The position numbers and the translations under genes were made by a program. Shown piece by piece: positions 5,482-31,478 of a stretch of DNA of 64,000 nt; the first letter of the stretch is position 1, and every line of letters starts with the position of its first letter. The notes beneath the pieces were generated by a model, which did not search any database, was not told where the DNA came from, and saw nothing but the letters and a program-made list of their open reading frames with translations. Source of the stretch: Tubulanus polymorphus (Eukaryota > Animalia > Nemertea); assembly GCF_964204645.1 (NCBI RefSeq), contig NC_134025.1, positions 18,885,101 through 18,949,100 of the forward strand, given 5' to 3'.

Positions 5482-5489
5482 TTATTATA

Positions 5490-5814: not shown

Positions 5815-5894
5815 TTTAATACTAAATTTTTTATTAAAATTGATTTTAGAAGTTCAATGATTTAAATGTTATTCATATATATATGAATATTTTA

Positions 5895-8455: not shown

Positions 8456-9070
8456 ATGTTCGAACTTCGCGGAATCACTCAATCGCTGAACTTTACAAAA
8501 CAATCAGATTCAAAATCCATTGCCCACAGAGATTTAAAACCTGCGAACATATTAGTTAGCAATAGTCATTATTTTGTCAATGGTAACCTCAATACATCAG
8601 TCATTAATTATGCCTTCAAAAATTTTCCAATTGTGTGCAAATTGACGGATTTTGTTGAAAGTCGGTCGAGGTTGTTGCAGACCAACATGTTGATGGCTGC
8701 TCAAATACAAAGAGTTGATCAAGGTACGGTACCGTACATAGCCCCTGAGCTGCTGCTTGCAGGAGAGGTTGCTGAATATTCGAATGTTTGTCTATCTCTG
8801 AATGATTTGCTGTTGGCGGACATCTGGGCATTGGGGATGACAATCTACAATGTAGTAAATCCTGACTTACTGGCCCCGTACTTCGTTGAAATTAAGGGTG
8901 AAATAGACGCAAGAAAATTCATTTAAGAAATGTTGAAAAATCAGAAAAAAACCTTCTTTTTCAAGAAAATTCCATCAAAAGCATGTCACTGTCTGGGAAG
9001 ATATCTGCACTATTTTCAAGAAGTGCACTCATTTCACACCATCGGATCGGCCAACAACTGATGAGCTCCA
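8456..9070 (+). pseudogene. Intronless Ser/Thr protein kinase C-lobe, decayed
   Basis: HRDLKPANILV, KLTDFV (DFG site), GTVPYIAPE, DIWALGMT; after a stop, FKKCTHFTPSDRPT. Confidence 0.85.
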
Positions 9071-9077
9071 ATGTACT

Positions 9078-10575: not shown

Positions 10576-10697
10576 AGTAAATGGGAAATAGTCTTTTCAA
10601 GCCAAAGGTCGAAAGGTCGAAAAATACATTCTCGCACACTCGAATGTATTTTTCGACCTTTCGACCTTTAAGTCGAAACAAATATTTCCCATTTACT
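10576..10697. repeat. Left terminal hairpin of copy B, 122 bp
   Basis: AGTAAATGGGAAATA...AAAGGTCGAAAGGTCGAAAAATACATTC-loop-GAATGTATTTTTCGACCTTTCGACCTTT...TATTTCCCATTTACT. Confidence 0.95.
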
Positions 10698-10767
10698 CTT
10701 AAAATATTCATATATATGAATATGAATAACTTCTAAAATCAATTTTAATAAAAAATTTGATATTAAA

Positions 10768-11110
10768 ATGGAGAGTAAACAAATACACAGTGAATTCTTA
10801 GATAGAATTAAAGATACTACAAATGTCAAATCTGTAGATTATAAATTTAAGAAGTTAACAGAATTAACAATTCATAAGAAATATTAAATTACAAATATTG
10901 ATACAGTTACTAACAAATATGGAGATAAAATTAGTTATTCACGTAGAATATGAAGGATTAAAAGGTAATACATATAAATTCAGAACATATTTACCAGATA
11001 GATTTCATAGATTATCTAGCGAAGATTTTGAAGAATTATGTTCTGGTGATTTCTATTTCATATATATGGGTAAGAATGAAAAAGGGTACCATGAAATAGA
11101 TTTCGAATAA
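10768..11110 (+). pseudogene. Small protein, possibly OB-fold ssDNA-binding; stop and frameshift
   Basis: KKLTELTIHKKY*ITNIDTVTNKYG...RTYLPDRF...IYMGK...HEIDFE beta-strand pattern. Confidence 0.45.
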
Positions 11111-11124
11111 AATATGTAAAATAA

Positions 11125-11883
11125 ATGGCGGAATTAAAAGAATATAGAATATTTGTTGATTCAAGAAGACTTACAAATTATAAAACCATAATTTACTAGT
11201 ACAATTAGATAGGGAATTTAAGAATTGTGTTGATTTAAAATTAGTAAACATTAGTTTATGTAATTCTTTTTACAATATATCGGGTAAATCTATTGAACAT
11301 AGAGCCTTTTTAATTTTTGATAAAAATAAAGATGAATGGTCCTATATATATTTAAAACTGGGGTCATATAATTTAGATACATTATCGCAAGAAAGTAATA
11401 GAAAAGCCTGGCACAAGTTAGGTAGTAATTCCGGGTTTAATATTAGATTTTTAAAAAGTGATAGTTCTGATAGAATAAAGATAAGGTTGTCTAATAGTGA
11501 AAAACATAAATTTATGGTTAAAAAAACCTATAGCTAAACTGTTAGGAATTCCTCCAGATAGATCTTTTACAAATATTGATGCTACACCAAACTTAATACC
11601 TTACACGCATTTTTATATTTATTGCAATTTAATTGATCCTACAAATTCATTTGAAGCAACTAAAGTTACAATTTGTAATTCTAGTATATTAAATGTTTTA
11701 CCATTAAAAAATGTTAAACAATTTGGAACACAAATAAATTATAATTAAGCTGAATGTGATTTTAAACCTTGTATTTCACGATTTGATAATTTTAAATTAG
11801 AAGTAAGAATTCATAATGGTTACTTAATTAATTTAAATAACTTTCCTGTAATTTATGAATTAGTTATAAGATGTAAAGAGTAA
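11125..11883 (+). pseudogene. Minor capsid (penton-like single jelly-roll) protein, disrupted
   Basis: IFVDSRR, CNSFYNI, PNLIPYTHFYIYCNLI, SSILNVLP, FGTQINY, FPVIYELVI pattern typical of Polinton/PLV pentons; TAAATG start. Confidence 0.7.
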
Positions 11884-12165
11884 TTTTTCACTATATAAAT
11901 GAATATGTGTTGGACCGAGTATATCTTTTGGATTTGATTTTAAACGTGAAAAAGAAATGAAATTTAACATTAATGATGTAATAACTAATATTAAAAATAT
12001 TACATTTTTTTATGAAACAACATTTGAATATGAAACAACAATAAATAAAAAAAACTTTTAATGTAGAAAAGATAACTGATTTAAATTGGAGTCTTTAAGA
12101 TTTTATGAATTAGATGAACTAAGATAACTAGATATTTTGAAGATAGTATTTTTTTTTCTAAATAA

Positions 12166-12387
12166 ATGGCGGATCAGAAGTGGATAATAACTGGTTTATA
12201 TAATGGAGAATTACTATCAGTTGGAACTGTTGGTTATTCAATGGTATTAAAAAAAGTATTTAAAATGGGAAGTGTTAATGTTGATAGATTTGATATCAAT
12301 GATATTTTAAAATTAACATTAGCAGTTACTTTATCTGATTTAACAATTGATTATTCAGAAATAACAAAATATATTCCTCCTATATAA
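12166..12387 (+). CDS. Small 73-aa hydrophobic element protein
   Basis: Intact ORF with T-tract/TAAATG start. Confidence 0.6.
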   Translation: MADQKWIITGLYNGELLSVGTVGYSMVLKKVFKMGSVNVDRFDINDILKLTLAVTLSDLTIDYSEITKYIPPI

Positions 12388-12425
12388 ATGCATAATATTT
12401 TTACTAAATAAATGGCATTTGCAAT

Positions 12426-15400
12426 TAGGGTTTACGCCTCCATAATTCTTATCTGTCAGGTTTGGTATAAATGTGTGCATTCCCTGACTAGTACCAGTTA
12501 GTTCACGTCGTTGCCACATTAAAGTTATATTGAAATCAAGTCTACATTCGTCGTTTTGTGTCGTTTGTCGTTGAGTTTGGTGGATTTCGACCATGGCTGA
12601 AGGGGCCGTTCGAATATCACGGATACCGGATACCGGACACCTAAATACCGGATACCGGATACTCGAGATTGCGGAGTATATAGCGCATCGGGTCTAAGGA
12701 GTCGTTTCCGTGCTGTTGTAAGTAGTACTGCCGCGACATACAATTTATTTGTCAAATTGTTACAGAGGCTAACCAACTTATTTGTCAGCCTGATTACAGC
12801 CTGCTTTCACGTTTTTAGTGTCATCATCGATCTCAATATTATACATATTTCTTTCTGAATACTGTTGTTCTTTGGTTAAGTGAAGTTAAACGTTACATTC
12901 ATTTTTTATTATCTTACTTCACTGGTGATGGATATGTATTGGTGGCCCTTTTTGGTTTTTCTGTAAAATCCTTTCGTTAATAGGGCTGAGTACTGCTAGG
13001 CCCTATATCTCAAGTTAGAAAGCCATAAGCGAGTCTGGCAGTTCTAACGTTTCTTCTAATAAAGTTTGTTTTAAAGATCTGTACATTTTGTATTTGTTGA
13101 TTTACGATGGAATAGTTGAGCTGAACACCAATGAAATACAAGTATTTAGAAACAAAGAATTAAAATTCGTTTTCTTATTTTATGGAGTAGAATATTCGGT
13201 ATATTCTATTTATTGGACGATATGTCTACATTTCATTCTCAATCATGATGTCCCTAAAAATGAAATTGAGTCCATGGCGATCGTCGAAAATCAACACCCC
13301 TGGACACCAATTGTTTTGGTATAACCTTCAAAAATCAGTTCGTCAGTGTTGATAGCGCTACTGCTAATATTTTCAAGGTACTGTACCTGTTCTTGTTTAA
13401 GTTCTCGTTTCTTCGTGATTAAAATGGCCACTTCGTCATTACAGACGTTTATCGATATACCTAGCCGAGAAAGTATTAATGTTCTAAAAAAGTCCGAGTT
13501 GCTTGATTTGGCAGCTCATTATAACGTATCTGTTAAAACGTCCCAAACAAAAGCGGATTTAAAGGACGTAATTGTGCGACATTTGATTGAATCTGGTGTA
13601 GTTAATAATGATCAGTTTGAGTCAGTTCCAGCTAAAATGTCCGATGTTCCGGAGAGTGTTATCATTCGACGTATCGAACTGGAGTTACAAGAGAAAGAAA
13701 AAGAGCGAGAAAGGCACTTTCAACTATCGTTACAGCGGATGGAAGGTGAACGCAGAGTGCGGATGCGTGAATTGGAAATCAATGCGTCTACCAGTAGATA
13801 TCAAGATAATGAAGTCGACTTTGACGTCACCCGTCACATCAGAATGGTACCCAGATTCCAGGAGTCGGAAGTAGATAAGTATTTTCGTCACTTCGAGAAG
13901 GTAGCGAACAATCTTAAGTGGCCTGGAGAAAGCTGGACACTGCTCCTGCAAAGTGTTCTAGTGGGCAAAACCCAGGAAGCTTATTCGGCTTTGAATTCTG
14001 AACAAAGTGCTCAATATGAAACAGTTAAAATTGCTATTTTGAAGGCGTATGAGTTAGTACCTGAAGCCTATAGACAAAGGTTTCGCGATCGGAGAAAAAC
14101 TGATTCAGAAACTTTTGTAGAATTCGCTAAAGATAAAGAGAGTCTATTTGATCGATGGTGCGATTCAAGAGGGGTAGATTATAGTGATTTTGAAAAATTA
14201 CGTCAATTAATGCTGGTTGAAGATTTCAAAACTTGTATAGGTAATGATATAAAAACCTATTTAGAAGAGCAAAAGGTTGATAATTTATTGAATGCAGCTA
14301 CGTTTTCTGATGATTATGCTTTAACTCACCAGAAAAGTAAAAAGCCGAATATCACCCAACCATCTTCCGTGTTCAATACATCAACATATTCCCTTGTTTC
14401 TGATCATAGAGATCGAGATAGACTTGTGAGATGTAATTATTGCAAAAACCCCGGTCATTTAATTTCAAACTGTTACAAGTTACAGGGAAAACAACAAAAG
14501 GGTAGCAATTCCCTTAATACGTTAGGGAATGGTCTTGCAACAAAAATCGAGTGCAAAGATAAAACTGTTCATTTTGAAAGCAGTCCTTTAAGATCTTACG
14601 AACCATTTATTATTGAAGGGAGAATAGCATTACATGAAACTTCAGAAAAGGTGAAATTAAAAGCGTTAAGAGATACTGGAGCCTCTCAAACGTTGTTGTT
14701 AGAAGGGACCTTACTTTTGTCAGAAAGCACATTTACTGGCCAGTATATTTTGTTGCGTGGCATTGGTCCGATCACGTTAGAAGTTCCACTTCCATAGAGT
14801 TTACCTTGAGACGACATTAATTTCTGGGTTAGTTATAATGGGGATTAGGCCTACTTTACCCGTTCCGGGCGTGTCTTTGTTGTTAGGTAACGATCTTGCT
14901 GGGGGGAGGGTTATTGTCAATCCATTAGTGACTAAAAACCCTAGTTTAGATTCGGATGTGGAATCTTCGGAATCTAGTGATCTTGGATTACATCCTGCTT
15001 GCGTGGTGACTCGTTCGTTAGCGAAAAGAAATAATGTTGAAGCTAGTAGTGATGATAAATCTTTTTCGTCTGATTCTATAGGTCAAAATTATAATTTAGA
15101 TGTTGGTTCAAACCATATTGAGGGCCTTAGTGAGACGTTTCTTAGTAAGATATTTGATGGGGCAGATTGTGATTTTGAGAAATTACGTTTCTTATCTAGA
15201 GCAGATTTAATCGAGTCACAAGCGCAGGATTCGGATGTTAGAAAGCTTAGCATTAACGCTGCATCTACTCTAGATGATTTAGATTGTCCCGCCGGTTATT
15301 ATTTTTATTCGGGTGTATCGATGAGAAAGTATAGACACCCTGATATTTTGTCTAGTGATGAATGGGCAGTGCAACATCAGATTGTAGTTCCTTTGGTGTT

Positions 15401-18400
15401 TAGAAAAGAGATCTTACATTTTGCTCATGATATACCTATTAGGCTATTGGCCATTTAGGCGTTAATAAAACGTATAAAAAGATATTAAGGTATTTCTTTT
15501 GGCCAGGTTTCAAATCTGATGTTGTTCAGTTTTGTAGGAGCTGTCACTGTTGTCAAGTGATAGGAAAGAGTACAGTTGTTCCTGCAGCACCGTTACAACC
15601 TATACCTGCCTTTTCAGAGCCGTTTGCTGATATTCTCTGTGATTGTGTAGGTCCCCTTCCAAAAACTCGCTCAGGAAATGAATTCCTGCTTACAATTATA
15701 TGCAAATCTACACGTTTTCCAGAGGCTGTACCTCTCAGGCGTATCAACGCGCCTTCGGTTATAAAGGCTCTTACCAGGTTCTTTACTAATTTCGGTCTTC
15801 CAGTGACTATTCAGAGTGATAATGGGTCGAATTTTGTGTCTAATATGTTTCAGAAAATAATGCATCAACTCGACATTAAACAAAACACGTCGAGTCCTTA
15901 TCACCCTGAAAGTCAAGGCGCTTTGGAACGATTTCATCGCACTTTTAAGAATATGCTCAGAGCCTATTGTGAGGAAAATTCGCGAGATTGGGATGAGGGA
16001 GTGCCGTTTTTGTTATTTGCTGTGCGAGATACTGTACAGGAATCATTGGGTTTCAGTCCTAACGAATTAGTTTTTGGCCATCATGTTAAAGGACCACTGA
16101 AACTGATCAAAGATCTTTGGTTGCATGAAACTACGGAGGTTTCATTGTTGAAATATGTCACTGATTTTAAGACACGAATGTATGAAACTTGGCAATACGC
16201 CCGTGATCATCTACAGAAAACCCAGGAAAACATGAAAAGTTGGTTTGATAGGAAAGCCAGATTTCGGTCATTTTCACCTGGTGAAAAAGTTTTAGTACTG
16301 TTTCCTTTGGATGGTCACTGTTTGAGAACAAAGTTTTCTGGTCCGTATGTTATAGAACGAAAATTATCGGACGTAAATTATTTAGTTGAAACACCGGATC
16401 GTAAAAAGAAATTTCGTGTTTGTCATGTAAATATATTAAAACAGTATGTGGATAGAAATCCGTCTGATAGTATTTCTCCCGTTTCAGTAGTTTTATCTGT
16501 GTCGCCTGGACGTGCAGATATATGTGTTGAAGATGATGTAACTATTGATGGTTCATATGCATCACCGTTGTTGAAAAATTCAAGTGTGCTGAATGAGTTG
16601 GATGAAAAGCTCAGCCATCTGGAGCCGGGTCAGAAATCCGAATTAAAAAGTCTGATAGATGAGTATAGACATTTGTTTTCTGATATCCCTGGTGAAACCA
16701 CTTTTGCTTGTCACGTCATGGATTTTGGCACCGCTTCTCCTGTCAAATAGCCTCCTTACCGTTTGAATCCCATGAAAGCTGATATTATGAAAAGAGAAGT
16801 TCAAGCCATGTTAAAGATGCAAGTTGCGGAAACAAGTGAAAGTGATTGGTCATCTCCTTGTATCATAGTTCCTAAACCTGATGGCAGGTGGCGCTTCGTT
16901 ACCGATTACCGCAAATTAAACAAACTTACTAAAAATGATTCTTATCCAATTCCCAGGGTGGAGGATCTGATTGATAAGATTGGCAGTGCTAAGTTTGTTT
17001 CCAAATTAGATCTCACTAAGGGATACTGGCAAGTGCCGTTGTCCGACCGTGCTCGTAGGATTTCTGCTTTCGTGACTCTAGATGGTTTGTTTCAGTGCCG
17101 AAAAATGCCTTTCGGCATGAAAAATTCTGCTGCAACTTTTCAGCGCCTAATGAATAAAGTTGTCAAGGGTTTTACTTGTATAATAGTGGTACATAGATGA
17201 TATTATTGTATTTTCAGACACATGGGATGATGACATACAATTACTACGAAAGCTGTTTGAGCGTCTGTCCGAGGCGAACCTGACCGTCAATTTAACTAAA
17301 AGTGATTTTGTCAAAGCAACAGTAACGTATCTGGGGCATATCGTTGGACAAGGGCAAGTAAGACCTGTTGACGCCAAAGTTAGGGCTATCCTTGATTTTC
17401 CTGTTCCTTCGGATCGACGCTCACTCGTGCGTTTTTTAGGTATGGCCGGATATTACCGGAGATTTTGTCAAAATTTCGCCGCTATTGCTTGTCCTCTCAC
17501 GAAAGACATCCCATTCGTTTGGAGTGGTTCCTGTAATGATGCTTTTGAGAGGTTTAAGTCTTTGTTAACTTGTGATACTGTAATGACTGCTCCAAATTTT
17601 CATAAGCAATTCAGTCTTACTGTTGATGCAAGTGATGTAGCGTCGGGGGCAGTATTGTCGCAGAAAACAGATGATGGTATTGATCACCCCTATTCAAAAA
17701 AATTCAGTACTCCTCAGAAAAACCTACCGTTGAAAAGGAGTGTTTGCCGTTAATTTTGTCAATTGAACATTTTGATGTGTATCTCAGTATGCCATTATTT
17801 CCAGTTAGTGTGTATACTGATCATAATCCGTTAGTCTTTTTAGACCGTATGAGAAACAAAAACCGTCGACTAATGAGTTGGAGCATTCTGCTACAGGAGT
17901 ATAACTTGGAAATACATCACCTGAGAGGTCGAGAAAACGTAGTTGCTGATGCACTTTCGCGCGTGTAGAGTAAAAGCCGTTCCGTGGGTTCTGAGGATTG
18001 GTTATGTGTTACTTCAACGTTGGACATTTGGAATTATGATAAGCGAAAAGACTTGACTATGTCGATGTTTAGATTTGAGTGTATTGTTTCGTACAATATG
18101 TGTACGTTCTTAACGGCGGGGGTGTTACCTCTGTTGGGTTTATAAGTACGAATATAAGTATATAAGTATGAATATTTTTGTATAGATTTTGTATCTGTAT
18201 TATGTAGTCTATTGAACGATCTGGTGTTTGTCAGGGTTTACGCCTCCATAATTCTTATCTGTCAGGTTTGGTATAAATGTGTGCATTCCCTGACCAGTAC
18301 CAGTTAGTTCACGCCGTTGTCACATTAAAGTTATATTGAAGTCAAGTCTACATTCGTCGTTTTGTGTCGTTTGTCGTTGAGTTTGGTGGATTTCGACCAT

Positions 18401-18420
18401 GGCTGAAGGAGGCCGTAACA
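12426..18420 (+). mobile_element. Ty3/Gypsy LTR retrotransposon, Gmr1-like (PR-IN-RT-RH order), decayed
   Basis: Truncated 5' LTR ~12426-12609; full 3' LTR 18123-18420 (TGTTAC...GTAACA) after PPT GGCGGGGG. Confidence 0.9.
13424..17968 (+). pseudogene. Gag-Pol: Gag with CCHC knuckle, protease, integrase, RT, RNase H; several stops and frameshifts
   Basis: CNYCKNPGHLISNC; LRDTGA; DCVGPLP/SDNGSNF/ERFHRT; LDLTKGYWQ/MPFGMKN; VDASD/YTDHNPL/ADALSR. Confidence 0.92.
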
Positions 18421-18434
18421 TAACTATTATAGGA

Positions 18435-19088
18435 TAATTCCGGGTTTAATATTAGATTTTTAAAAAGTGATAGTTCTGATAGAATAAAGATAAGGTTGTC
18501 TAATAGTGAAAAACATAAATTTATGGTTAAAAAACCTATAGCTAAACTGTTAGGAATTCCTCCAGATAGATCTTTTACAAATATTGATGCTACACCAAAC
18601 TTAATACCTTACACGCATTTTTATATTTATTGCAATTTAATTGATCCTACAAATTCATTTGAAGCAACTAAAGTTACAATTTGTAATTCTAGTATATTAA
18701 ATGTTTTACCATTAAAAAATGTTAAACAATTTGGAACACAAATAAATTATAATTAAGCTGAATGTGATTTTAAACCTTGTATTTCACGATTTGATAATTT
18801 TAAATTAGAAGTAAGAATTCATAATGGTTACTTAATTAATTTAAATAACTTTCCTGTAATTTATGAATTAGTTATAAGATGTAAAGAGTAATTTTTCACT
18901 ATATAAATGAATATGTGTTGGACCGAGTATATCTTTTGGATTTGATTTTAAACGTGAAAAAGAAATGAAATTTAACATTAATGATGTAATAACTAATATT
19001 AAAAATATTACATTTTTTTATGAAACAACATTTGAATATGAAACAACAATAAATAAAAAAAACTTTTAATGTAGAAAAGATAACTGAT
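18435..19088 (+). repeat. Near-identical duplicate of 11426-12080 (penton 3' half)
   Basis: Sequences match from TAATTCCGGGTTT to GATAACTGAT. Confidence 0.9.
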
Positions 19089-19234
19089 AAATGTGTGCAT
19101 TCCCTGACCAGTACCAGTTAGTTCACGCCGTTGTCACATTAAAGTTATATTGAAGTCAAGTCTACATTCGTCGTTTTGTGTCGTTTGTCGTTGAGTTTGG
19201 TGGATTTCGACCATGGCTGAAGGAGGCCGTAACA
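19087..19234 (+). repeat. Extra partial Gypsy LTR (copy of 18273-18420)
   Basis: ATAAATGTGTGCATTCCCTGACC...GGCCGTAACA. Confidence 0.9.
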
Positions 19235-19641
19235 TAACTATTATAGGATCAGCAATTGCTAACGCTTTGGCATTTACTGGTGGTGGATATATATTTAAAC
19301 ATATTGATAAAAGTAGTTCATTAGGAGAACAAAGAAGACATAACTTAGCATTAGAGAAATACAATAAAGCTGCAGAAGAATATAGAGAAAAGAGGCAAAA
19401 CTATATGGATTACATCAATAAAGAATTATATAATCAGAAAATTACACATAGAGATTTTCAATCAGTCGATGAAGCTATGAGTTTATATAACGCAGTAACA
19501 AATCGTGAAAAAATACATCTATATAAACCTAAATTATCAGATTATTACACACCAAGTAGTGAACAGAAGAAATATGAAATAATTTGGATTTTAGGTGGAA
19601 CAGTTATTGTATTATTTGTTGCTTATAAATTTACTAATTAG
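19213..19641 (+). CDS. Element protein with N- and C-terminal hydrophobic segments; native start (12412) separated by the Gypsy insertion
   Basis: IIGSAIANALAFTGGGYIF and IIWILGGTVIVLFVAY; joining ATGGCATTTGCAA to TAACTATTATAGGA restores MAFAITIIG. Confidence 0.7.
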   Translation: MAEGGRNITIIGSAIANALAFTGGGYIFKHIDKSSSLGEQRRHNLALEKYNKAAEEYREKRQNYMDYINKELYNQKITHRDFQSVDEAMSLYNAVTNREKIHLYKPKLSDYYTPSSEQKKYEIIWILGGTVIVLFVAYKFTN

Positions 19642-19660
19642 TAATTTCTTTTCTAAATAA

Positions 19661-20096
19661 ATAGTTGATAAAGTTGATAATATTGATATTATTCCTCATG
19701 ATATGAATAAAACTAAATTAAAATTATATTTGGAAAAACAAATATTAGAATTTGAAAATGATTTAAAAGTTAAAAAGAAAAAATATTTAAAAAGTAAAAT
19801 TATATACTATTTTATTATTAGTAGTTCAGTTACAATAAGTTCGGTTATAACATTTCTAGCATTATTCTCACCATTAACACCTTTAGCTATCTCAATTGGA
19901 GCTTTAGGTTTAAGTTCAAGTGTATTAACCGGCATAAGTTCAAAATTAAATATAAAAAGTAATAAAGAAAAAATAAAATCTAATATAAAAGAAATTAATA
20001 AAATTAAAAAATACATTAGATTATATAATAAGTTTAAATGGTAATATAACAGTTGAAGAACAAGATAAATTACTAAAAGAATTAATAAATTATTAA
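19661..20096 (+). pseudogene. Two-TM small protein; native ATG apparently mutated to ATA
   Basis: ORF 19703-20044; TAAATA at 19658 lies 14 codons upstream in frame. Confidence 0.6.
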
Positions 20097-20112
20097 TTTT
20101 TTTATTATATAA

Positions 20113-21350
20113 ATGGTAGATAGTTTTCCAAAAGCTTTTCAATATAATAAATCAATTGACTATAATATTCCTGCAATAGATTTTAATAAAGATATTTCAT
20201 ATAGAAATGAAGTTTTAGATTCATTAATTAATTTAGATATATATGTTACTGAAACTAATAATTTTAATGCAAAGATGGAAAATATATTGCGTGTATATTT
20301 AAATATAAATTAATTCAAAGTTTATTTAGATTTCATACATACTTCCAAATAAGATTGATAATAAATGAATTAGAGTGTCCTTAACCAGGATCTAGGTATT
20401 TTGAAGAATTAGATAATAATATTAATTTGTCAAAGTTTTTTAAAATTTGTAACGAATTTAATATAGATATAAATAATTCTGATTTTAGAACAAAACTTGG
20501 AACAATAAGATCACTTCCTTGCCCTAAAAAGATTGCACAATATTGTGCACTTCCCATACCATCTAATAGCTTTTATAATATCTATAATAATAAATTAGGT
20601 TATGGTTAACTAGAAACTAAGGATTTAGAAACGTTAAATTTCAATCAATTACCGAAATTCTATGATAATTTAAAACAAGAAAACAATAATGGTTGGGTTT
20701 ATTTTATTTTAGAAAATGGTGAGGGATTTAGTAAAGCTGGTATACAAAGAATAAATCAATCAATTAGAACTTATTTGATATGTATTCTAGGATCACAGGT
20801 TGAAACCAGATCCCCAATAATTGGAAATTTAAATACATCATTTGATACACAAAAACAATTCAAAGTATTATTTGAAGATTCAATTCATAATGATGAAAAT
20901 AGATCGATTCCAGAAAATATCGTTAGGTATCAAAATTATTTAGATAAATCTCATGTAAGATTAAATTATTGTATAGGTCCTAATTTATTAATTATTTCTG
21001 ATGATTTAATCTTAAAAATGGGAAATATAATTGGTTATAATAATTTGATTAAAACTGCAACAATAAATAATTCATTTGGATTAAATGACATAAATAAAAA
21101 GATTATTACTGCTCCAAAATTAATGGAAGGTGAAAAAATTTAAAAAAATAATCAACTGAAACTAAAACTAAAAATATCAAATTAAATAATGATTCTAAAC
21201 CGGATTACAATACATCAGACAATATAAAAACTGATATTATTCAACATGATATAATTAAAAATAATAATGATAATAAATCGCATGAAAATACTAAATTAGC
21301 TATAACTTGTATTTGTAATTGTAATTGGAGGAATATTATATTTTAAATTT
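20113..21350 (+). pseudogene. Conserved unknown element protein, fragmented
   Basis: Fragments 20113, 20427, 20775; GFSKAGIQRINQSIRTYLICILGSQV motif; TAAATG start. Confidence 0.6.
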
Positions 21351-21368
21351 CAATTTTTTATCATATAA

Positions 21369-23379
21369 ATGGAAGAAGATATTCCAATGGATACTTTTGG
21401 TGACACCCCCGGTATAAGTGATGAACCACAACCAGAATTTAATGAAACTAATATTGATAATGATGGTGGAGCAGCATATAATACTAATTTAGGTGAAGAT
21501 GATTCTAGTGGGCCTATATTATATGATTATGATGAAGTTAAAGATGATACTGAAACAAGTGAAAAATTAATAGATTATTTAAGAACCCACGATGAGATAA
21601 TAATTAAAACTAGACCAGAAAGAAAAGATGTAATTAATAGATTAGAAAGAACAGAAAACCTTGAATTGAAAAAAAAGAATTATTATACATAAAATATAGT
21701 GAAACAAATACAGTCATTGAAGAATTATTACCAAAAAATGTAACAGATAACATTGAACCAGAAGATATTTCAGAACAAATTAGAGAAATTGATCCACATT
21801 TCATGAATAATTTAGAATTTAAAAATGTTTCATGGTATTATAATGTTGAACTAAATAACAAAACTGTATCAATTCAATTATCTAAAATGGGACAAGAAGA
21901 TCTGTACCATCCTGAAATGTTAGCAAGATCTTCAATTGAACGTTCAAAAGGTGGTTCGGAATTTCTCAGAATTATATGGAATGCACTCGATAGAATAAAT
22001 GAAGAAGAACCAAATGTTGGTATTGATATTAACATATATTCACCATTTAAAAATCCAAATTTAAATCCTACTTATGTTGATCCAGAAATTGAAGAGTATG
22101 GAGATCGATTAGATAAATTAAGAACTTCAACACCAGGAACATCGAGAAGAGATATTCAACAGATTGACAATGGTTCAAGTCAATTACAATTAGTAAAACA
22201 TTTTGATAGCATGTTAGATACAGTTCATTCATTTGAAGAAGAGATGAATAGTATTTTAGATACACCTGGTACTGAAACTGGAACAAATCAAGTGCAATCT
22301 TTATTAAAAAAAGGATTACTTGATTTAAATGAAGAACAATTAAAAATATTTTCTCGACGTAGAGAAATTAAAGGTATGCAAGAATCAGCTGGTGAAATTG
22401 CTAATATTAAGATGAGATTTTCTAAATGTTAGAAAAAGAATTAACTGATGCAAATGAAGAATTAAAACAATTAGAATTAGATAGAGATCTTCAAGTAATC
22501 GATGAAGTTGAATATGAATGCAGAAAGTTAGCTTTAGAAAAAGAAATTGATGATTTAAAATATAATAATAAACACGAATTTGTATAGCGCCTCTTTCCAT
22601 GTACCTGTGTACAAAGTTCAGCTGCGCTGTCAAACCTGATTATTATTACCCAGCTTCTGTTACCATTCCATAGCAGTCTTACTCTCCCTGGGAAGATACA
22701 ACACCGATTAGCAAATCACGATCAGGCGTCGTCAGCCGGTAGCAAGTGTGAATTAATGCCTTGCCTAAGGACACTACAGCATAGCCGGGGTTCGAACACT
22801 GGACATCTCGATTGAGAAGCCAACGCCTTAACCTTTAGGCCATGCCACTCCACGCCTTTAAAATATAACAAAGAATTACAGGAAAAAGAAAGAGACATAT
22901 TATTGAAATCATATGATCTTAATCATATTAAAAAATTAAAAGTTATTTTTAAAGATTTAATAATAAAATCAGATTCTAAACTATCATTGAAAGATAGAAT
23001 AAGATTATTATTTAAACTAGAAGGTATAACAATTCTTTCAATTCTAACAGCTGTTACTATGGTATTTACAACAATAGGTTTAGCAATATCAAATTCATTA
23101 AAATCTACACCAAGTCCTAAACCACCTGATAAACCTCCGAGTCATAATTCTATACAAGATAAAGTGAAAGATGGTTTAAAAAATTAGCAAAATATTTATG
23201 GGAACTATCTAAAAAAATCCGCTGTTGCTTTACCTGGAGTTATTGCATCAATTGTTGGTTTTATATTGAAATCTGCTGGAAGTATTCTTAACTTTGCTGC
23301 TGAACATATTATTTTATTTTCAATTACAGTTGTAAGTGCTATCATATTTGGGTTAGTGAATATGATAAAAAATAAATAA
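21369..23379 (+). pseudogene. Large acidic/coiled-coil protein with C-terminal TM helices, fragmented and SINE-interrupted
   Basis: Fragments 21369, 21803, 22903; EGITILSILTAVTMVFTTIGLAI; ALPGVIASIVGFIL. Confidence 0.6.
22566..22856 (-). mobile_element. tRNA-derived SINE
   Basis: A box TGGCCTAAAGG, B box GTTCGAACCCC, tail GCGCTATACAAAT..TTATTA; 12-bp TSD TTTAAAATATAA at 22554 and 22857. Confidence 0.88.
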
Positions 23380-23399
23380 TCAAATTTTTTGTTAAATAA

Positions 23400-24647
23400 A
23401 TGAGTGGGAATTATATCAATCCTTCTTCGAATTCTAGAATATCTAATGCTATTAAAGCAGAAAGATCCCATCATATAATTACTCATAACCCTTCTAATAT
23501 TTATCCCGATGAAACTTTATACGTTAGAATCCCTAGATTAACACAAAATACTTTTTACGTTCCAAATAGTATTTATTTATCAGCCGATATAAAAGTAATC
23601 GGTAATAATAATAATTATGTTGTTGATAATGTTGGAAGATATTTGATTAAAAAATTAACTATAAAGATTGGTCCAGAAACAGTTTTCTCATTAGATGATT
23701 ATAATTCATTTATGCATTATAAAGATTTATGGTTAACTAAAGAAAATAGAAATAATATGATATTTCAAGGAATCCAATCAGAAAACCAAAATAAATTAAG
23801 ATCAGAAGCACATAATGCAATATTAACTAATGCTGTAGATAAATTGATAAAAAGTATATATGAAAGCAAATATAAAATTCCATTAGACTTTGAATTGATA
23901 AATAACAATGCACCTTTATATAAATACGCAATTCAAGAAGACGTTATATTCGAAATAACATTTGCTCCTGTAAATGAAATTGTATTATCTAGCGTTGTTA
24001 AAGATATGAGTTATAAATTATCGAATATATGTTTAGAATATGATACAGTAACTGATGAAAATATTGCTAACACAATTCAAACTCAATACAATCAAGGATT
24101 TTCATTATTATATGATTATATTGATAAATTTAAAACTGTAACTATTAATGCAAATGATGAAATTATTAATGAGAATATTAACTTCCCAAGGAGATCTATT
24201 AAAGGTATATTAATATTTTTTACCATTGCAACATATTCTAATGGTGCAATAAATGTTGATAATTATTATAATCCTGAAATAACAAAAGTAGAAATAACTA
24301 TCGAAGGAATAGCAAATAAAATATTTTGTCAAGGAATTAGAATGATTGATCAATGGCCAGAAATTAGAAAACATTTTATGAATGAAAAAGTGAAATCATC
24401 TGAAAATTGTAATATTAATCAAATTGATTATTATGCCGGTAACAAATATGCATTATGGTTAGATTTTAGAACAACAGAGGATAATTCATTACATGGTTCT
24501 GGGAAAAAATTACAGAATACTAAAGATGGAATACAATTATTCATGACAAAGAATAAAGGAATCAAAAATTTTAAAATGCACATTTATATTATATCTGACG
24601 CGCAATTAAATATTGTAAATTCTAAATTAGATAGTGTTATGTATTAA
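23400..24647 (+). CDS. Major capsid protein (double jelly-roll, Polinton/PLV-like), intact 415 aa
   Basis: Size, beta-rich pattern (VGRYLIKKLTIKIG, YKIPLDF, LSNICLEYD, RSIKGILIFF, KYALWLDFRT, IYIISDAQLNI) and context with penton and ATPase. Confidence 0.78.
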   Translation: MSGNYINPSSNSRISNAIKAERSHHIITHNPSNIYPDETLYVRIPRLTQNTFYVPNSIYLSADIKVIGNNNNYVVDNVGRYLIKKLTIKIGPETVFSLDDYNSFMHYKDLWLTKENRNNMIFQGIQSENQNKLRSEAHNAILTNAVDKLIKSIYESKYKIPLDFELINNNAPLYKYAIQEDVIFEITFAPVNEIVLSSVVKDMSYKLSNICLEYDTVTDENIANTIQTQYNQGFSLLYDYIDKFKTVTINANDEIINENINFPRRSIKGILIFFTIATYSNGAINVDNYYNPEITKVEITIEGIANKIFCQGIRMIDQWPEIRKHFMNEKVKSSENCNINQIDYYAGNKYALWLDFRTTEDNSLHGSGKKLQNTKDGIQLFMTKNKGIKNFKMHIYIISDAQLNIVNSKLDSVMY

Positions 24648-24679
24648 AATTCTAGTTTTAATAAAAATTTATTATATAA

Positions 24680-25623
24680 ATGGAAGGAGGTAAAGTATAT
24701 AAACATATTCCATACATCGATACACATGAAAATAATGATGGTTTATATTATGTAATACCTTGTAATATAGCTTTGATATTTGATCCTATTTTCAAAATTT
24801 ATAAAACTAAACTAATAGAAATCGATAATAATAAAAGTGGTGTTGTTGATAATTTAAGTAATGTAATACCTTCTACATCTAATAATGTAATACCTACTAC
24901 ATCTAATAATGTAATGCCTACTACATCTAATAATGTAATACCTACTATATCAAATAATGTAATACCCTCTACATCAAATAATGTAATACCTTCTACATCT
25001 AATAATGAAATAATATTAAATGTTAGTGAAAATAGAAATTATTGTGATTATTGTAAAGGCGAATTTTCAAACGCTCCATCAAATTGGAATAAACATATGA
25101 ATACAAGGGTACATATAAATAATGTAATAGATCGTGTTGGTTTAAAAGAATTTATAGAACACCCATTTAGATATGTTACAAAATTTGTTTCAAATAAAAA
25201 GTAAATGGTAAAGAATTATATGAAGATTTTTTATTAGCAACACCTAATAAAGATGAATTAGATTTAACCGATGCTAATAAAATATTAGGATCAAACATTG
25301 TAAATGAAATATTAGGAGCAAACACTAATAAAGATGATAATGAAAATGGCGCCATACGGCACCCACATGATGATATAGTTACAGATAAGCATATTGATAA
25401 TAAAGATTCTATGAAACATAAAGTAGTAACTATTGATGATGTGATAGAAAGGATGAATAAGCATAACAATGAAACAACTATTGATGATGCGGTAAAAAGG
25501 GTGAAGAATAAGTATAAAAATAATGAAGAATTAGAAGAAGATTCGGTAGAGAAATTGAATAGCTTGTTAGGGTCTGATAGTGAAAGTGATTCAGAAAGTA
25601 ATTATCTAACAATCAAAAAGTAA
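24680..25623 (+). pseudogene. Protein with (NNVIPSTS)n repeat, C2H2 zinc finger and acidic tail; probable frameshift near 25200
   Basis: 24-nt tandem repeat ~24857-25006; CDYC...HMNTRVH. Confidence 0.6.
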
Positions 25624-25627
25624 TAAA

Positions 25628-26010
25628 GGTTGAAAATTGTATAAAATAATAGTAAATAAAAAAGGGGGTTTTAAGTATTAAGGTATTTAATACATATCTA
25701 ATACGTATCTAATACGTATCTAATATGTATCTAATACATATTATTTGAAAATACCTTAAATTATATATCTTTTTTAAATTTATATTGAAACCTCAGTAAT
25801 AATAAATAACCTTTATTATTTTCAAACTTATTCATATATTAGTTGAAAAAAATAAAAATAAATTGGTTGAAAATTGTATAAATAATATTTATTTTAAAAA
25901 AGGGGGTTTTAAGTATTTAAGGTATCTAATAGGGTATCAGGTATTAGGGTATCTAATGGGGTATCAGGTATTAGGGTATCTAATAGGGTATCTAATACAT
26001 AGATATATAA
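25628..26010. repeat. Duplicated non-coding block with short tandem units at the gene convergence point
   Basis: GGTTGAAAATTGTATAAA...AAAAAAGGGGGTTTTAAGTATT at 25628 and 25865, each followed by GTATCTAAT-type repeats. Confidence 0.75.
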
Positions 26011-26014
26011 AAGG

Positions 26015-26610
26015 TTATTTTATAAATTTATATTCATAGGGAAATTGTAGTCTCAGGAATAATTTTGAACCTTTATTATTCTTTAATTTATTCATATAAT
26101 CATCATGTAATTCAGTAGGTATAATTTGATTTTCTTCCGATGATTGTTGCATAGATTTCTTATCTTTGTTATAAAATAAAACTAGAAATCTTATATTCTC
26201 CCTAAAGTCTTTAACAATTGAATTATATTTTTGATTTAAAACCCATGTTGTTATCCCAAAATGTCTCCCAGAGAAAGCTAGATAACATAACTCACTTTCT
26301 CTAACTTTTGAATCAGGTAAATTTGCACAATCATCTATAATGAATAATGTATTTGATCCTTTATAAGTATCAATTGCTATTTTAATACAATTATCTAAAT
26401 TTGGGATAATATAATAAACTTTTTTATCTTAACTATATCTCTATTATATGTTTTATTCATTTCATAAGTAGGACAAAATAATATTATATTATCAAAATGA
26501 TTCTTATAAATAGTTTCTAACAAATCTAATATGAAATGTGTTTTACCACAATTGGTTACACTAGTAACTAACATATTATGCGGTTCAAATATAAATAAAT
26601 CTTTATTCAT
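26015..26610 (-). pseudogene. A32/FtsK-type packaging ATPase, frameshifted
   Basis: SVTNCGKT (Walker A G to S), TLFIIDDCA Walker B. Confidence 0.85.
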
Positions 26611-27702
26611 TTATTCTTTTAATTTTACTAGATAAAATCCATTCATTAAATTTATCATCATATCCTTTATATTTCACCAAAGAATACTTTTTTCCTTTAA
26701 GAGTTTTTGTTTTCAATACTTTTTCTATTTTGTATTCTATTTCATCTGGGTTTGGTACAAGTGATAATTCTTGTTCATAGACATAACCTAATATTTCTTC
26801 ATCTTTTAGATCTTCTAATTTATAAACAAAAGGTTTAGTTAGTATTATCTTTTTAATCTTGAATATTTCTTCAGTAAAATTTGGGGTATGACCTTTATAA
26901 AAGGTTTTTCGATATTTAGATATTCTAACGTGTTGTCCTATTTTAAATTTAGGTTCACCGAAATCATGTGTAACAAATGCTCCATATAAATTATTCCAAC
27001 CTATTTCTGAATTATCTTCTTTTCTAGCTTGTATAGGTTTCATATTTATAGAACTATGTTTAGAATTATTATAACCTTTCACTAAATCATCTAATACATC
27101 GATATATATATATATGTTTCATTAGCAGTAAAGTATTTCCACATTCTAGTTTTCAATGTTTTATTAAATCTTTCTATAATAGATGCTTTTTTATCTGAGT
27201 GTTTTGAAAAATAATCTACATCGTTATCAGATAATAGTTTTTTAAAATGTTTGTTATAAAATTCCTTACCTTCATCAAATTGTATCATATCTGGAAGAGC
27301 TTCTTTAAATATTGATTTAAAAGCATTTGTTACTTCTATTCCAGTTTTAATTTTGATTGGAATTGACCATGCGTATCTACTGAATATGTCTATAACATTT
27401 AATATCCAGAAATATCCTTTGTCGTGTTCTTCTAAGTTCTTCATGTCAATTAAATCTGCTTGCCATTGTTGATCGATATATGAAACCATAACTTTTCTTG
27501 TTAAATAAGTTTTATCCATTTTCTTGTGGATTTGATATGTTGGTTGATTTTGTAACCATGATTTTAATTCACTATATTTTATATCACCATTACCATTTTC
27601 CTTATCAGATTTAATTTTACCCCAAAATTCTGTAACGTTAGAATATGATACTTCACTTTCTGGGTTATAATATCAATCTCTTAAATATTGTTCTTTTTTC
27701 AT
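26603..27702 (-). pseudogene. DDE integrase plus chromodomain; early stop and (TA)n frameshift near 27100
   Basis: Same motifs as copy A; YKIEKVLKTK...VKYKGYDDKFNEWI. Confidence 0.92.
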
Positions 27703-27708
27703 TCTATT

Positions 27709-28077
27709 TTAATCCATTAATAATAATCTTGGTTTATTTTCAATGACTTTATCATTTGACTTATTTTCTGGTATAATAGGTTTATTGTCATTGGATTCAT
27801 CTTTATCATTAGATTTGAATTTTGATTTATATATTACACCGGATAATATAATAACTGTTACTAATCCAATTGTAATATATAATTTATAATTACTTCCAGC
27901 ATTAGAAGAATCAGATGGATTATCATTCGAATCAATATCAGATAAAGTCTGTGATTCATTTATATCAGTTAATTTCTTTTTCTTAGCTTTTTTTAATTCT
28001 GAAGATCTTTTACCTAATTCTCTTGCCCATTTAATTTGTTTCTCGGATCTAGCCTTTTTCTTAACTCCATCACTCAT
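27709..28077 (-). CDS. Unknown 122-aa TM protein (homolog of 2320-2715)
   Basis: Near-identical translation. Confidence 0.7.
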   Translation of the reverse strand: MSDGVKKKARSEKQIKWARELGKRSSELKKAKKKKLTDINESQTLSDIDSNDNPSDSSNAGSNYKLYITIGLVTVIILSGVIYKSKFKSNDKDESNDNKPIIPENKSNDKVIENKPRLLLMD

Positions 28078-28680
28078 TTATTTTAGTTAATTTTTGTTCT
28101 GATTCATTTTCTGTTTCGACGTTTGGTTGTAGTACATCTGTTTCGTTCTTACCTGATTTATATTCCATAGGCTTGATGTTCGAAAATGTTATGACACCAG
28201 TAGAAATTAATGTCATAACCGATCCTAATTGGAATGAAGCATAACCAAACCAATTTTTGTAATTCAGTCATAACTAAATAATCATTTTTCAAATCACTAT
28301 ATAATTTATTTTCATCATCAATTGGTATTAACTGGTTACATAACTAAGAATAACATTTGACAATACCATCTGAAATAGAATCATTTATTCTAGCTAAATC
28401 TAGCTTCTTCATAAATCTTAAAATATTTTATTACTTTATCTGGTTTCATAGCATCTAATTCTTGAAAAGTAATAGTCTTAGTTAAAAACTCTCTACACTT
28501 TCCGCTAGCAATCAATAGTTCGAGATGGTGTTTACAATATAAATAGTATTCATAATCTATATTACAATTAACTTGAATATTATTTTCAATTTTGGCCGGA
28601 ATATCCTTATTATCACTAATGCCCAAATCATCTAATGTCTTTTCAATATCAATACTATTCTTATTAGATTTCTTTGACAT
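28070..28680 (-). pseudogene. Homolog of 2708-3313, frameshifted
   Basis: Translation matches until EEAR, then shifts frame. Confidence 0.7.
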
Positions 28681-28924
28681 TTATATTAGAGAAAAAAAGC
28701 AAAAAAAATGTTATAAGTATTCTTCAAATGATACTAGTATCTCTTTGGGTTAATAATTTAGTTAGTTAAAGGTAAAGAATTTTAGTATTAGTTATTGTTT
28801 TTTTAGTATTTTTTATTTGTGATATAAAGTATTCTTTTTTGAAAAGAAAATATTAAAAATATAATAGAATAGATAGTTGAAGGTATGTAATTTTTATTAT
28901 ATTTTATTTAAATTCTATTATTCT

Positions 28925-29590
28925 TCAACCACTCATTAAAGACTCAACGTATTGTTCATTATTTGGATCATTATTCCATAATTCAATAAATTTTTTTGCT
29001 TTATCCAGTTGATTCAAATATAACTGTAAATCTAGTTTATTAAATTTTATTTTATTTTCTTTCTTTTCAAGAGGTCTTAAATTCTTCCAATTCCAAATTA
29101 ACTTTTTATCATATTCATCATTCATGTCAAATTTAGAAATAGGCAACACATGATCAATATGAAAGTATTCACCATAATTATCTATATTCATTTTATCATC
29201 GAATTGATATATTATCCATGATTTGAAAAATTCATCTGAACAACCCAATAAATTAGATAGTGTTTCAGAATGTGTTTCTTTGTTGAATAATTGTGTTAAT
29301 CTAGATCTTAAGCATTGTTTCAATCTAAAATTAAGATCCGTTTGATATCTTTCTCTCATATATTCTGTCATATAATCATTATAAGCTTCTCTATTATCTT
29401 CTCGATATTGTTTGGTATATAGTTTAAAACAAGTTTTACAGCAATATTGAAAACCATCTTTGCTAATCTTACGCTTACTAAATTCTGTTAATGATTTATC
29501 TAATTCACATTTCGAATACTTCTTGTAACATATATTTATAACACCAGTGTTATTTGTAATATTGATAGTTTGTGGTTGTTCTGGTTCCAT
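28925..29590 (-). CDS. HNH endonuclease, 221 aa
   Basis: HIDHVLPIS...WKNLRPL; near-identical to 4831-5481. Confidence 0.85.
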   Translation of the reverse strand: MEPEQPQTINITNNTGVINICYKKYSKCELDKSLTEFSKRKISKDGFQYCCKTCFKLYTKQYREDNREAYNDYMTEYMRERYQTDLNFRLKQCLRSRLTQLFNKETHSETLSNLLGCSDEFFKSWIIYQFDDKMNIDNYGEYFHIDHVLPISKFDMNDEYDKKLIWNWKNLRPLEKKENKIKFNKLDLQLYLNQLDKAKKFIELWNNDPNNEQYVESLMSG

Positions 29591-29710
29591 TTATTATACG
29601 TATATTTCACTAAATTGGTTAATATTTTAGAATCCTCTTCCATTTCTTCGACCAACGTCATCCTTTTTCATTCTTCTTTGCTTTTGATAAATTGTTTCGA
29701 TTCCTTGATA

Positions 29711-30265
29711 TCTAGATAATACCACTGGGCAAAAGCGCGCATTCATGCGCGCTTTTGCTTAATGCGCATGCGTTAATCATAATTATATATTCATTCTATA
29801 AATTCTGTAAAATAGAAACAACACATGCGTTGCATGCGTCACATGCGGCCATTGATGTCCGGTTTTGCTTAATGCACATGTGTTAATCATAATAGAAACA
29901 ACCGACATGAAATATCTAAATAATACCACTGGGCAAACCGCTCTTATAGGAGCGTTTTTGCTTAATGCGCATGCGCTAATCATAATTATATATTCATTAT
30001 GTAAATTATGTAAAATAGAAACAACCGAACACAGAAAATATCAAAACGTGTTCGCATTAGGCAAAAGCGCGCATTCGTGCGCGGTTTTGCTTAATGCGCA
30101 TGCGCTAATCATAATTATATATAATTATGTAAATAGAAACAACCGACATGAAATATCTAAACGTGTTCGCATTAGGCAAACCGCGCATTCATGCGCGCTT
30201 TTGCTCAATGCGCATGCGCTAATCCTAATTATATATTCATTCTGAATAGAAACGACCGAACATAA
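29711..30265. repeat. Array of ~5 units (~100-125 bp), most with a GC-rich palindrome
   Basis: GCAAAAGCGCGCA-TTCA-TGCGCGCTTTTGC followed by TTAATGCGCATGCG.TAATCATAAT...ATAGAAACAACCGA. Confidence 0.85.
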
Positions 30266-31069
30266 AAATTCACCAAACAGATTTATGCAATACATTATAC
30301 AAGTTGTTCGGCCGTTTCTTCCAATACATCATTTGATTTCTATAAATACAATTTATAATTACAAACATTTTTTCAATTGCTGGTAAATATTTAACTACAT
30401 CAACAAATGTTAAACTTAATCATCGGAGTCTTAATGTTTTTGAAATTCTTATATAGTTTCTTCGTTGATCTTTTGTGATTCTATTGGTTTGATATCCATT
30501 GCTGTTGATTCCTCAGTCAGAAAGAGTATCTTGAGTTTCTCTATCACTTCTTGATGCGTATGACGTTTTATTAATCTAAAAGATATTAGCGGCAACTCTA
30601 GCCATCTAAAAGATATACTAAATACACTTAAATATATCTAAAGGTTTCATATTTAATAGCCCTAATAACTACAAAAAACAGTACTTACATTTAGATTTAG
30701 AATTGTAAACTATAAACTCCTAATTTCGTTTCGAGAGATAGAATATCCTAAGCGTAATGTTACAGCGTCTGTTCAGTTCCTGCCACGTCATCTGGTTCCG
30801 GTTCTAGAGTGTTCTCTGCACGTTTGCAATAATGAGTCATATGTCTCGGCGTCATAGTAACAGCTGTGAATTTATAGATTTATTCCATAGCTCTTTACAT
30901 TGAATGTATATAGGCTCAAATAGAATCATGTTCACACTTTACTAACACTTTTAATGTTTAAAAATCTAACTCACACAAATATGAATATTGAAATAATGTT
31001 GTAAATATATACTTTTATATTGAATAATCTGTCAATTTAAATGTTATTCATGTATATGATTATTTTAAG

Positions 31070-31478
31070 AGTAATAGGGGTTTAGTTGGTTCAGGTTAAA
31101 GGTTGAATGGTCGAGTTCATTAAAAACAAATATTAAAAGTAATTTAAAACTATAATATATTTTCATAGCCGTGTGTATTTTAGTTAAATAATAGAATAAT
31201 TATTATTATTTGAATATATTTGATTATATGAATTTGTGTATTGTAAATAAATCAATTGGTCGCGGAGCGGAGCTTTAGCGAAGCGGAGCGACCAATTGAT
31301 TTAATACAATATGCTTTTAAAATTTAAATTATAAATATCTTAGAATAAATATTTAGTTATAAAATAAAATGCACACGGTTATGAAAATATATTATAGTTT
31401 TAAATTACTTTTAATGTTTTGTTTTTAATGAACTCGACCGTTCGACCTTTGGCCTGAACCAACTAAACCCCTATTACT
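31070..31478. repeat. Right terminal hairpin of copy B, ~409 bp
   Basis: AGTAATAGGGGTTTAGTTGGTTCAGG...CCTGAACCAACTAAACCCCTATTACT; apex stem AAATCAATTGGTCGC/GCGACCAATTGATTT. Confidence 0.95.

Follow-up and report, generated by a model that had tools for sequence, protein, structure and literature searches.

A probable polymerase-deleted Polinton derivative with palindromic ends and a poxvirus-like promoter layout in the nemertean Tubulanus polymorphus

This study was concerned with an endogenous viral element in a 64-kb stretch of genomic DNA from the nemertean Tubulanus polymorphus (the window, referring to all 64,000 nucleotides of the stretch). The element, copy B at 10576-31478, is an endogenous virus in a state of decay. 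It is bounded by palindromes and has an AT-rich core of 14.1 kb and a nested Gypsy element, and the right arm of a second copy, copy A, lies at 1-6102. With the Gypsy element and the duplicate at 18435-19249 excluded, the core of B measures 14,080 bp at 25% GC, compared with 38% GC in both flanks, and its genes are arranged in two convergent blocks. Most of these genes are frameshifted pseudogenes, and the capsid and HNH frames are intact. As argued below, B probably descends from a Polinton that lost its protein-primed DNA polymerase B (pPolB), and its gene starts show the layout of poxvirus late promoters. The features are listed in Table 1, in which L numbers denote related capsid-bearing loci and PZ and PW, like "cup", are provisional working labels.

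Table 1. Features of copies A and B, in window coordinates (ORF, open reading frame; LTR, long terminal repeat; TM, transmembrane).
Feature	Position	Strand	Basis
Right arm of the second element copy (A)	1-6102		89-91% identical to B in shared parts
Putative pPolB deletion scar, copy A	5701-5814	-	First 38 codons of clade pPolB, then a piece of the HNH C-terminus
Left terminal palindrome	10576-10697		56-nt arms, 10-nt loop, AGTA start; fold z -12.4
Subterminal repeat with promoter-like TAAAATG start	10698-10770	+	Sequence comparison with copy A
g1, small protein, frameshifted	10768-11110	+	Homologue of L006:125-466
Likely penton-like minor capsid gene, frameshifted	11125-11883	+	Homologue of L006:565-1326
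Two small ORFs, the second hydrophobic	11899-12387	+	Order kept in L006
Nested decayed Gypsy-type LTR retroelement	12427-18416	+	LTRs 97% alike; SCAN, RVT_1 and integrase matches
Near-exact duplicate of 11426-12080 plus LTR piece	18435-19249	+	99.8% and 100% identity
Two-TM membrane protein, SLATT-like (weak), broken	19661-20093	+	Pfam SLATT_fungal E 0.0018; homologue in L006
Conserved Polinton gene (PZ), broken	20113-21343	+	Present in most long relatives
Long coiled-coil protein, C-terminal TM segments, broken	21369-23379	+	Homologue L006:4328-5782
Major capsid candidate, 415-aa ORF, intact	23400-24647	+	Structure prediction and homologues
Region separating the two blocks: short direct repeats and variable ORFs, one with a zinc finger of U1 type	24680-26000	+	
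A32-type packaging ATPase, frameshifted	26015-26610	-	Pox_A32 in two frames
rve integrase with chromodomain, frameshifted	26603-27702	-	PF00665 E 1.6e-8 and chromodomain
TM protein and second conserved Polinton gene (PW), the latter frameshifted	27709-28680	-	
HNH-type endonuclease, intact, 221 aa	28925-29590	-	Visible H-x-x-H motif
Tandem 114-bp units with internal palindromes	29708-30268		Repeat analysis
Right terminal palindrome	31070-31478		About 190-nt arms, imperfect AT-rich middle, TACT end; z -27.0

The 37 ORFs of the window were scanned against protein families. The AlphaFold2 model of the 415-aa ORF (pLDDT 89, from a 57-row alignment) is a double jelly-roll that Foldseek matches to the capsids of PBCV-1 and SGIV at E values near 1e-17 (best PDB match, the PBCV-1 capsid, E 1.5e-17), and the protein has 928 homologues. 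The penton-like protein has as atlas neighbours viral proteins of about 250 aa (TM 0.8) without a named family; it is likely a minor capsid protein, presumably with a jelly-roll fold. The closest named atlas cluster to g1 is Phi29 SSB (score 0.87, 44% of members), and its fold predicted without an alignment (pLDDT 51) gave no clear match (best Z 5.0); thus g1 is a possible single-stranded DNA-binding protein, as a lead only. The HNH call is based on the H-x-x-H motif and a weak Pfam match in a homologue (E 0.0055), the window ORF itself having no HNH match, and the position of this gene differs among A, B, L004 and L011. No peptidase family was found among the 37 window ORFs, nor among the 7 scanned ORFs of L023, a complete pPolB-bearing relative, so the lack of an adenain protease is not special to B. 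No helicase family was found in the 37 ORFs beyond the P-loop of the ATPase. The original prediction, made from the letters of this stretch, had described two preserved termini enclosing a core of about 14 kb in two convergent blocks, with candidate capsid, ATPase, integrase-chromodomain and HNH genes and no polymerase, helicase or protease. Termini, core and absences agree with our results, as do the double jelly-roll, the packaging ATPase and the integrase; the HNH assignment is weak and the minor capsid protein belongs to no named family. That prediction was silent on the pseudogene state, the Gypsy element and the duplicate at 18435-19088.

The ends of B were examined in raw genomic reads labelled as the same species (run X5, about 12% of which was read), mapped to 18400-33400. 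At 31478, 432 reads continue into unlike sequence (agreement 0.37), and this position is therefore a true end with many different flanks. Read depth is 450-920 on most core genes, compared with 18 in the lowest host bin, and falls to about 90-180 in two variable stretches; from this low depth, 24680-26000 varies between copies. The right arm, which is free of polymerase, has a depth of 614-881, similar to that of the capsid gene (866-918). The high core depth and the reads with unlike flanks indicate that the element family has multiple copies at many insertion sites, although depth does not fix how many copies there are. The gene order of copy A was found in 129 reads, and 677 reads depart from B before 19234.

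The first letters of B are AGTA and the last are TACT. Three termini fold as stems, namely B left, A right (5897-6102) and B right, with z of -12.4, -25.2 and -27.0, respectively. Chance repeats were rejected as an explanation, given z of -12 to -27 and the exact read ends. In the well-aligned stems of the three termini, the mismatches read on the TACT-3' strand comprise 16 G·T, no A·C and 5 others. The G·T mismatches number 7, 5 and 4 per terminus, with some sites shared by descent (p 3e-5, or about 1e-3 if the count is reduced to 11 to allow for shared sites). A duplex that changes at random after integration should yield G·T and A·C equally. A one-sided excess would be expected had the TACT-3' strand been folded or single-stranded before acting as the sole template, and it appears to point to a folded or single-stranded intermediate of the element; either selection for pairing or cytosine deamination could have produced it, the two being inseparable here. 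In addition, the inner arm is preceded by AG at the place that corresponds to the TACT cut of the outer end, which would be consistent with an integrase that cuts next to a closed hairpin, fill-in taking place afterwards. The loops of the B-left and A-right termini have a common TCGC...ACACTC motif, and the two ends of B are 78% alike over 45 nt only. No target-site duplication (TSD) was found at B, the left flank reading GAGGTA and the right flank GAGAGT. When 84 loci were scanned for ends, L023 was the sole relative with a clear end pair, an exact 99-nt terminal inverted repeat (TIR) match without a terminal hairpin. A scan with the terminal motif gave 4 single matches without element genes, which were taken as chance.

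Neither pPolB nor superfamily 1 (SF1) helicase remnants were detected within 10576-31478 by tblastn and six-frame profile search, and a pPolB profile made with 17 database pPolBs had the same outcome in B as an earlier profile. The whole polymerase is also absent from copy A, which holds an ORF running from 5814 to 5701 that is 70% identical to residues 1-40 of the pPolB homologue P0185 and 76% to P0179, and all 20 listed matches of this ORF stem from pPolB searches. It is the first ORF inside the right end of copy A and points inward; the pPolB slot in L023 and L047 lies near the right end, behind one small ORF. From these alignments we read 5701-5814 as a deletion scar, and this was preferred to an independently moved zinc finger because the match begins at residue 1 and its location is the expected one. 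Not even this N-terminal remnant is left in B. The subterminal segment of B, inverted, precedes the scar in copy A (79% identity over 146 nt with 5797-5941). Since the segment before the scar is the one before g1 at the left end of B, the ancestral ends likely acted as promoters, one of them driving pPolB and the opposite one g1. That pPolB was deleted from a Polinton ancestor is, in our estimation, highly probable.

The relatives of B agree with this view of its ancestry. In total, 83 capsid-bearing loci were fetched, and the 46 of at least 3.3 kb were tabulated. Ten of the 46 match pPolB queries of the ordinary kind, and most of the others are too short to reach the replicase slot. The capsid tree was built by a quick method from 61 rows with at least 330 aligned residues (shorter rows excluded, no virophage rows, composition warnings for AT-rich rows). 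It places B with L004-L008 (support 100), within a 17-row group (support 90) that includes the pPolB-bearing L011 and L073; L006 is the nearest sister, with 73% capsid identity. The contigs of L004-L008, all incomplete, contain no pPolB. However, the kinase and penton-like protein of L006 and a member of its capsid cluster lie on a 16,883-bp ENA contig, and the pPolB P0183 is on a contig of exactly 16,883 bp. Capsid and pPolB matches also share contig sizes of 12994, 10613, 10750 and 10208 bp. It is very likely from these equal sizes that close sisters of B carry pPolB, and the A, B and C polymerase motifs are all present in 5 of 6 clade pPolBs checked. The original prediction had taken the element as a distinct kind of helper-dependent virus. 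With the scar in copy A and relatives that combine the same gene set with pPolB or an SF1 replicase, evidence largely of the kind that the prediction itself had named as refuting it, a primitively replicase-free virus class was rejected.

Several observations on these relatives can be added. L048 has at 9970-13596 a 1209-aa SF1-helicase replicase (AAA_30, AAA_19) in the pPolB slot, with structural genes as in B, and this replicase has no counterpart in B. A deoxynucleoside kinase is encoded at L006:10343-10981, and in P0174 the C-terminus of pPolB is continued, within a single frame, by the beginning of a kinase domain. The pPolB homologues P0182 and P0208 carry the extra precomputed families PF14890 and PF14528, presumably an intein and a LAGLIDADG domain. 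In IMG/VR no related element was found with capsid, integrase or pPolB queries, and the single contig matched by the kinase was unrelated. In GTDB genomes, the capsid matched 3 short contigs, whereas integrase and pPolB queries had no match. Capsid homologues filed under Bartonella assemblies or metagenome-assembled genomes (the P0046 cluster, L001-L003) are probably eukaryotic contamination.

The gene starts of the element carry a recurrent motif. TAAATG is present at 13 of 17 starts in B and at 4 of 7 in A, where 2 more read TAAAATG, compared with 38 of 558 core ATGs as background (6.8%; binomial p 1e-12). Over 75 relative loci with a scored start it occurs at 51 of 252 starts: 26 of 28 in the nearest five loci (L004-L008), 19 of 25 in the next 11, none of 156 in a distant clade of 39 loci and 6 of 43 in 20 others. 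An effect of AT content was rejected, as the 10 AT-rich loci of the distant clade have the motif at 0 of 26 starts. Three flanking features separate starts from other TAAATG sites, namely a T nine bases before TAAAT (41 of 44 starts versus 33 of 77 other sites), an A at -1 (41 of 44 versus 26 of 77) and an upstream T-run (22 of 44 versus 3 of 77). The T-run is found at the capsid and other likely virion genes, and A-rich upstream DNA at the ATPase, HNH and terminal genes. These two kinds of start resemble the late and intermediate classes of vaccinia, the assignment to classes being by analogy. More distant loci also have TAAATG starts (L073, at 5 of 5 and with pPolB, L083, L071, L074, L078 and L026), so that the clade with this promoter extends beyond the AT-rich group.

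In the vaccinia late promoter, TAAAT(G) overlaps the start codon and is preceded by T residues (PMC11980589, PMC5294985; also reference titles in PMC4542343). The same motif is found at entomopoxvirus late genes (PMC3061580), and the late motifs of ASFV, mimivirus and CroV are unlike TAAATG (PMC11788076, PMC5294985). The gene starts of the element thus show the poxvirus late-promoter layout, which suggests that the whole TAAATG clade uses a poxvirus-like transcription machine. We consider transcription by a helper, taken on its own, to be reasonably likely. In this respect the helper dependence of the original prediction gains support from the promoters, and in a more specific form than it proposed, while the distinctness of the virus does not, as the element falls in a Polinton clade with a pPolB scar. 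No report of poxvirus late promoters in Polintons was found in the literature searched, which was chiefly open-access, with preprint supplements outside its scope. To the extent of these searches, the TAAATG promoter signature and the strand-biased stem mismatches appear to be new.

Among the features that define Polintons, B has the double-jelly-roll capsid, the rve integrase (frameshifted) and the A32/FtsK packaging ATPase, and lacks pPolB and the combination of TIRs and a 6-bp TSD. The adenain protease and pPolB of adintoviruses are absent, as are the SF1/SF3 helicase and primase-polymerase of Polinton-like viruses (PLVs) and Tlr1. The capsid groups by sequence with Polinton loci in the tree described above, and the cysteine protease of virophages is missing. 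On gene content, the element would be classed as a Polinton derivative and not as an autonomous member. It is closest to animal Polintons/Mavericks (adintoviruses, PMC8502044; coral polintoviruses, PMC11131425), in the group with EndoVII-containing pPolB such as L023. It shares with them a homologous capsid (30-54% identity), the ATPase, the rve integrase, several accessory genes, AG...CT ends and a replicase slot beside the right end. It differs in the deleted pPolB, in palindromic unequal ends instead of a plain TIR, and in its TAAATG starts (the distant clade has 0 of 156). PolB is present in most coral polintoviruses (PMC11131425), and replicase swapping is known (PMC8502044, PMC11161782, 10.64898/2026.10.13.758929).

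Four other systems share single traits with the element. The polB-less polintons of Pieris (10.1101/2025.02.07.637071) have also lost polB, have been amplified nonetheless and carry retroelement cargo, but they belong to the adenain-bearing insect group, and the available text mentions neither hairpin ends nor helper promoters. The virophages and PLVs of Halocafeteria (10.64898/2026.07.28.741278) have terminal palindromes, an rve integrase, replication without pPolB and a hairpin-priming model; they differ in a protist host, another replicase that is kept, and TSDs, whereas the element has an animal host and no replicase left. The entomopoxvirus-associated PLVs (Barth et al., PMC11296320) are Polinton-like and were proposed as parasites of animal poxviruses. 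Unlike the element, they encode a protease and their own replicases (a primase-helicase with a tyrosine recombinase in two), and the words "promoter" and "TAAAT" are absent from the main text of that paper. Like the element, the mavirus virophage has helper-type promoters upstream of its genes and integrates by an rve integrase; the element differs in its Polinton-type capsid, in lacking protease and polymerase, and in a promoter motif of poxvirus rather than mimivirid type.

We tentatively favor, at slightly less than even confidence, a polymerase-deleted Polinton that became a satellite and is both transcribed and copied by a poxvirus-like helper. The capsid, ATPase, integrase, precise ends and many insertion sites are its starting point, and the ancestral pPolB would have been lost by the deletion that left the scar, the sisters' pPolBs being deduced from equal-size contigs. 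The helper RNA polymerase would read the TAAATG promoters. A released strand would fold at both palindromes to give a hairpin-ended linear DNA copied by helper enzymes, and the element's ATPase would pack this DNA into its own capsid. The integrase would then cut one strand beside each hairpin at TACT-3' and join it to host DNA, and repair would open the hairpin into a terminal palindrome. The decayed copy B would rely on other copies for most proteins. Polinton-like elements do occur in entomopoxvirus occlusion bodies (PMC11296320). A broader form, in which a Polinton clade became a virophage of poxvirus-like viruses and one lineage dropped its polymerase and exchanged protein priming for poxvirus-style hairpin telomeres, is as a whole less likely than not.

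Several points weigh against the satellite reading. No helper virus was seen in the host material examined, and the helper is proposed from the promoter signature. Yeast virus-like plasmids have a related initiator. TAAAT is also found in some ranavirus promoters (PMC5294985), and the conserved T is at -9 by our count and the "10th nucleotide" in the paper. Three of the 13 TAAATG starts in B (11125, 11899, 25205) were picked partly by the motif, although the counts for L004-L008 were not. The pPolB-bearing L011 (2 of 4) and L073 (5 of 5) have TAAATG starts, so the motif is older than the loss of the polymerase; it therefore bears on transcription and by itself is silent on DNA synthesis. A link between the hairpins and the loss of the polymerase is likewise uncertain, since the plain-TIR comparison is L023, outside the TAAATG clade. 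Without a TSD, the two ends of B could derive from two insertions, and this would likewise account for how little they resemble each other. Lastly, among the loose ends listed (3843 rows lie beyond these), 429 and 620 reads leave B just inside the right end, and these could include intact, polymerase-bearing copies.

Such copies are central to an alternative that we regard as a substantial possibility, in which the element is a non-autonomous derivative copied in trans by intact pPolB-bearing siblings in the same genome, hairpins being clade-wide and a helper virus perhaps still transcribing it. The scar in copy A and the equal contig sizes listed above suit it well. Three AT-biased pPolB clusters and three sister capsid clusters share the sources NCBI, JGI and ENA (pooled over clusters), and the pPolB-less Polintons of Pieris were amplified beside intact ones (10.1101/2025.02.07.637071), which gives a precedent. 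However, no pPolB-bearing copy was seen in the host material examined (the 64-kb window and reads over 18400-33400), the polymerase-free arm is at core-level depth, and the unlike ends of B would suit panhandle-based protein priming poorly. The element might instead depend on the host nucleus, TAAATG being an AT-rich start context for RNA polymerase II and host polymerases copying the hairpins as in parvoviruses, in which hairpin priming without a viral polymerase is established. An integrase with a chromodomain implies nuclear access, and hairpin priming needs no viral polymerase, as was also proposed for the Halocafeteria elements (10.64898/2026.07.28.741278). Nevertheless, the AT-rich distant relatives lack TAAATG starts altogether (0 of 26), the T signal upstream marks true starts specifically, and no nicking-helicase was found in the family scan of 37 ORFs or the profile search of B, all of which makes host dependence improbable. 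The broken genes, the missing TSD and the 655-bp near-exact internal duplicate would be expected if the copies were dead relics in which pPolB was lost once they had been inserted and which were then multiplied by segmental duplication, B being chimeric or partly mis-assembled. This is very improbable in view of the 432 reads that end exactly at 31478 with unlike flanks, the intact capsid and HNH frames and the strand-biased stem mismatches.

The remaining features are noted for completeness. The Gypsy element splits a small conserved gene, the 5' part of which runs from 12412 and the remainder of which is at 19235-19641. The 655 bp of 11426-12080 recur at 18435-19088 with 99.8% identity, and 18435-19249 appears to be either a local duplication or an assembly artefact. 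Copies A (3726-3890) and B (29708-30268) both have tandem units with internal palindromes, unlike in sequence, which are possible origins or enhancers. Just past the ATPase gene, inverted repeats are found in copy A (265-680), L006 (9082-9359) and L008 (3183-3259), and B has short direct repeats instead. The left junction of B reads GAG-GTAAGT and is splice-donor-like. The insertion site (6105-10575) contains decayed ORFs, one with a protein-kinase domain (8456-8926), and is possibly another mobile element. The window otherwise resembles animal DNA, with an ankyrin-repeat exon (49913-50242) and LTR and long interspersed nuclear (LINE) elements. Nested LTR elements and a LINE occupy 33570-47614, one with a 1174-aa frame and another in which 152-bp repeats resembling LTRs lie at 33570 and 43130. 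An element of about 630 bp at 50419-51052 resembles a miniature inverted-repeat transposable element, with inverted ends starting AGTAC, and a repeat of 340-390 bp is present three times in 57251-61073, together with a 68-bp tandem array.

Animal Polintons may be viruses in their own right or may parasitise larger viruses, and a clade-restricted poxvirus late-promoter signature names a candidate class of helper. If the hairpin lineage truly has no polymerase-bearing partner, it would show how a small DNA virus can pass from protein-primed replication to replication based on hairpins. The TAAATG motif could also help to find the hosts of unknown invertebrate poxviruses. If the virophage reading is true, the element would be a capsid-encoding, integrating satellite without a replication enzyme and the genomic footprint of an undescribed invertebrate poxvirus.

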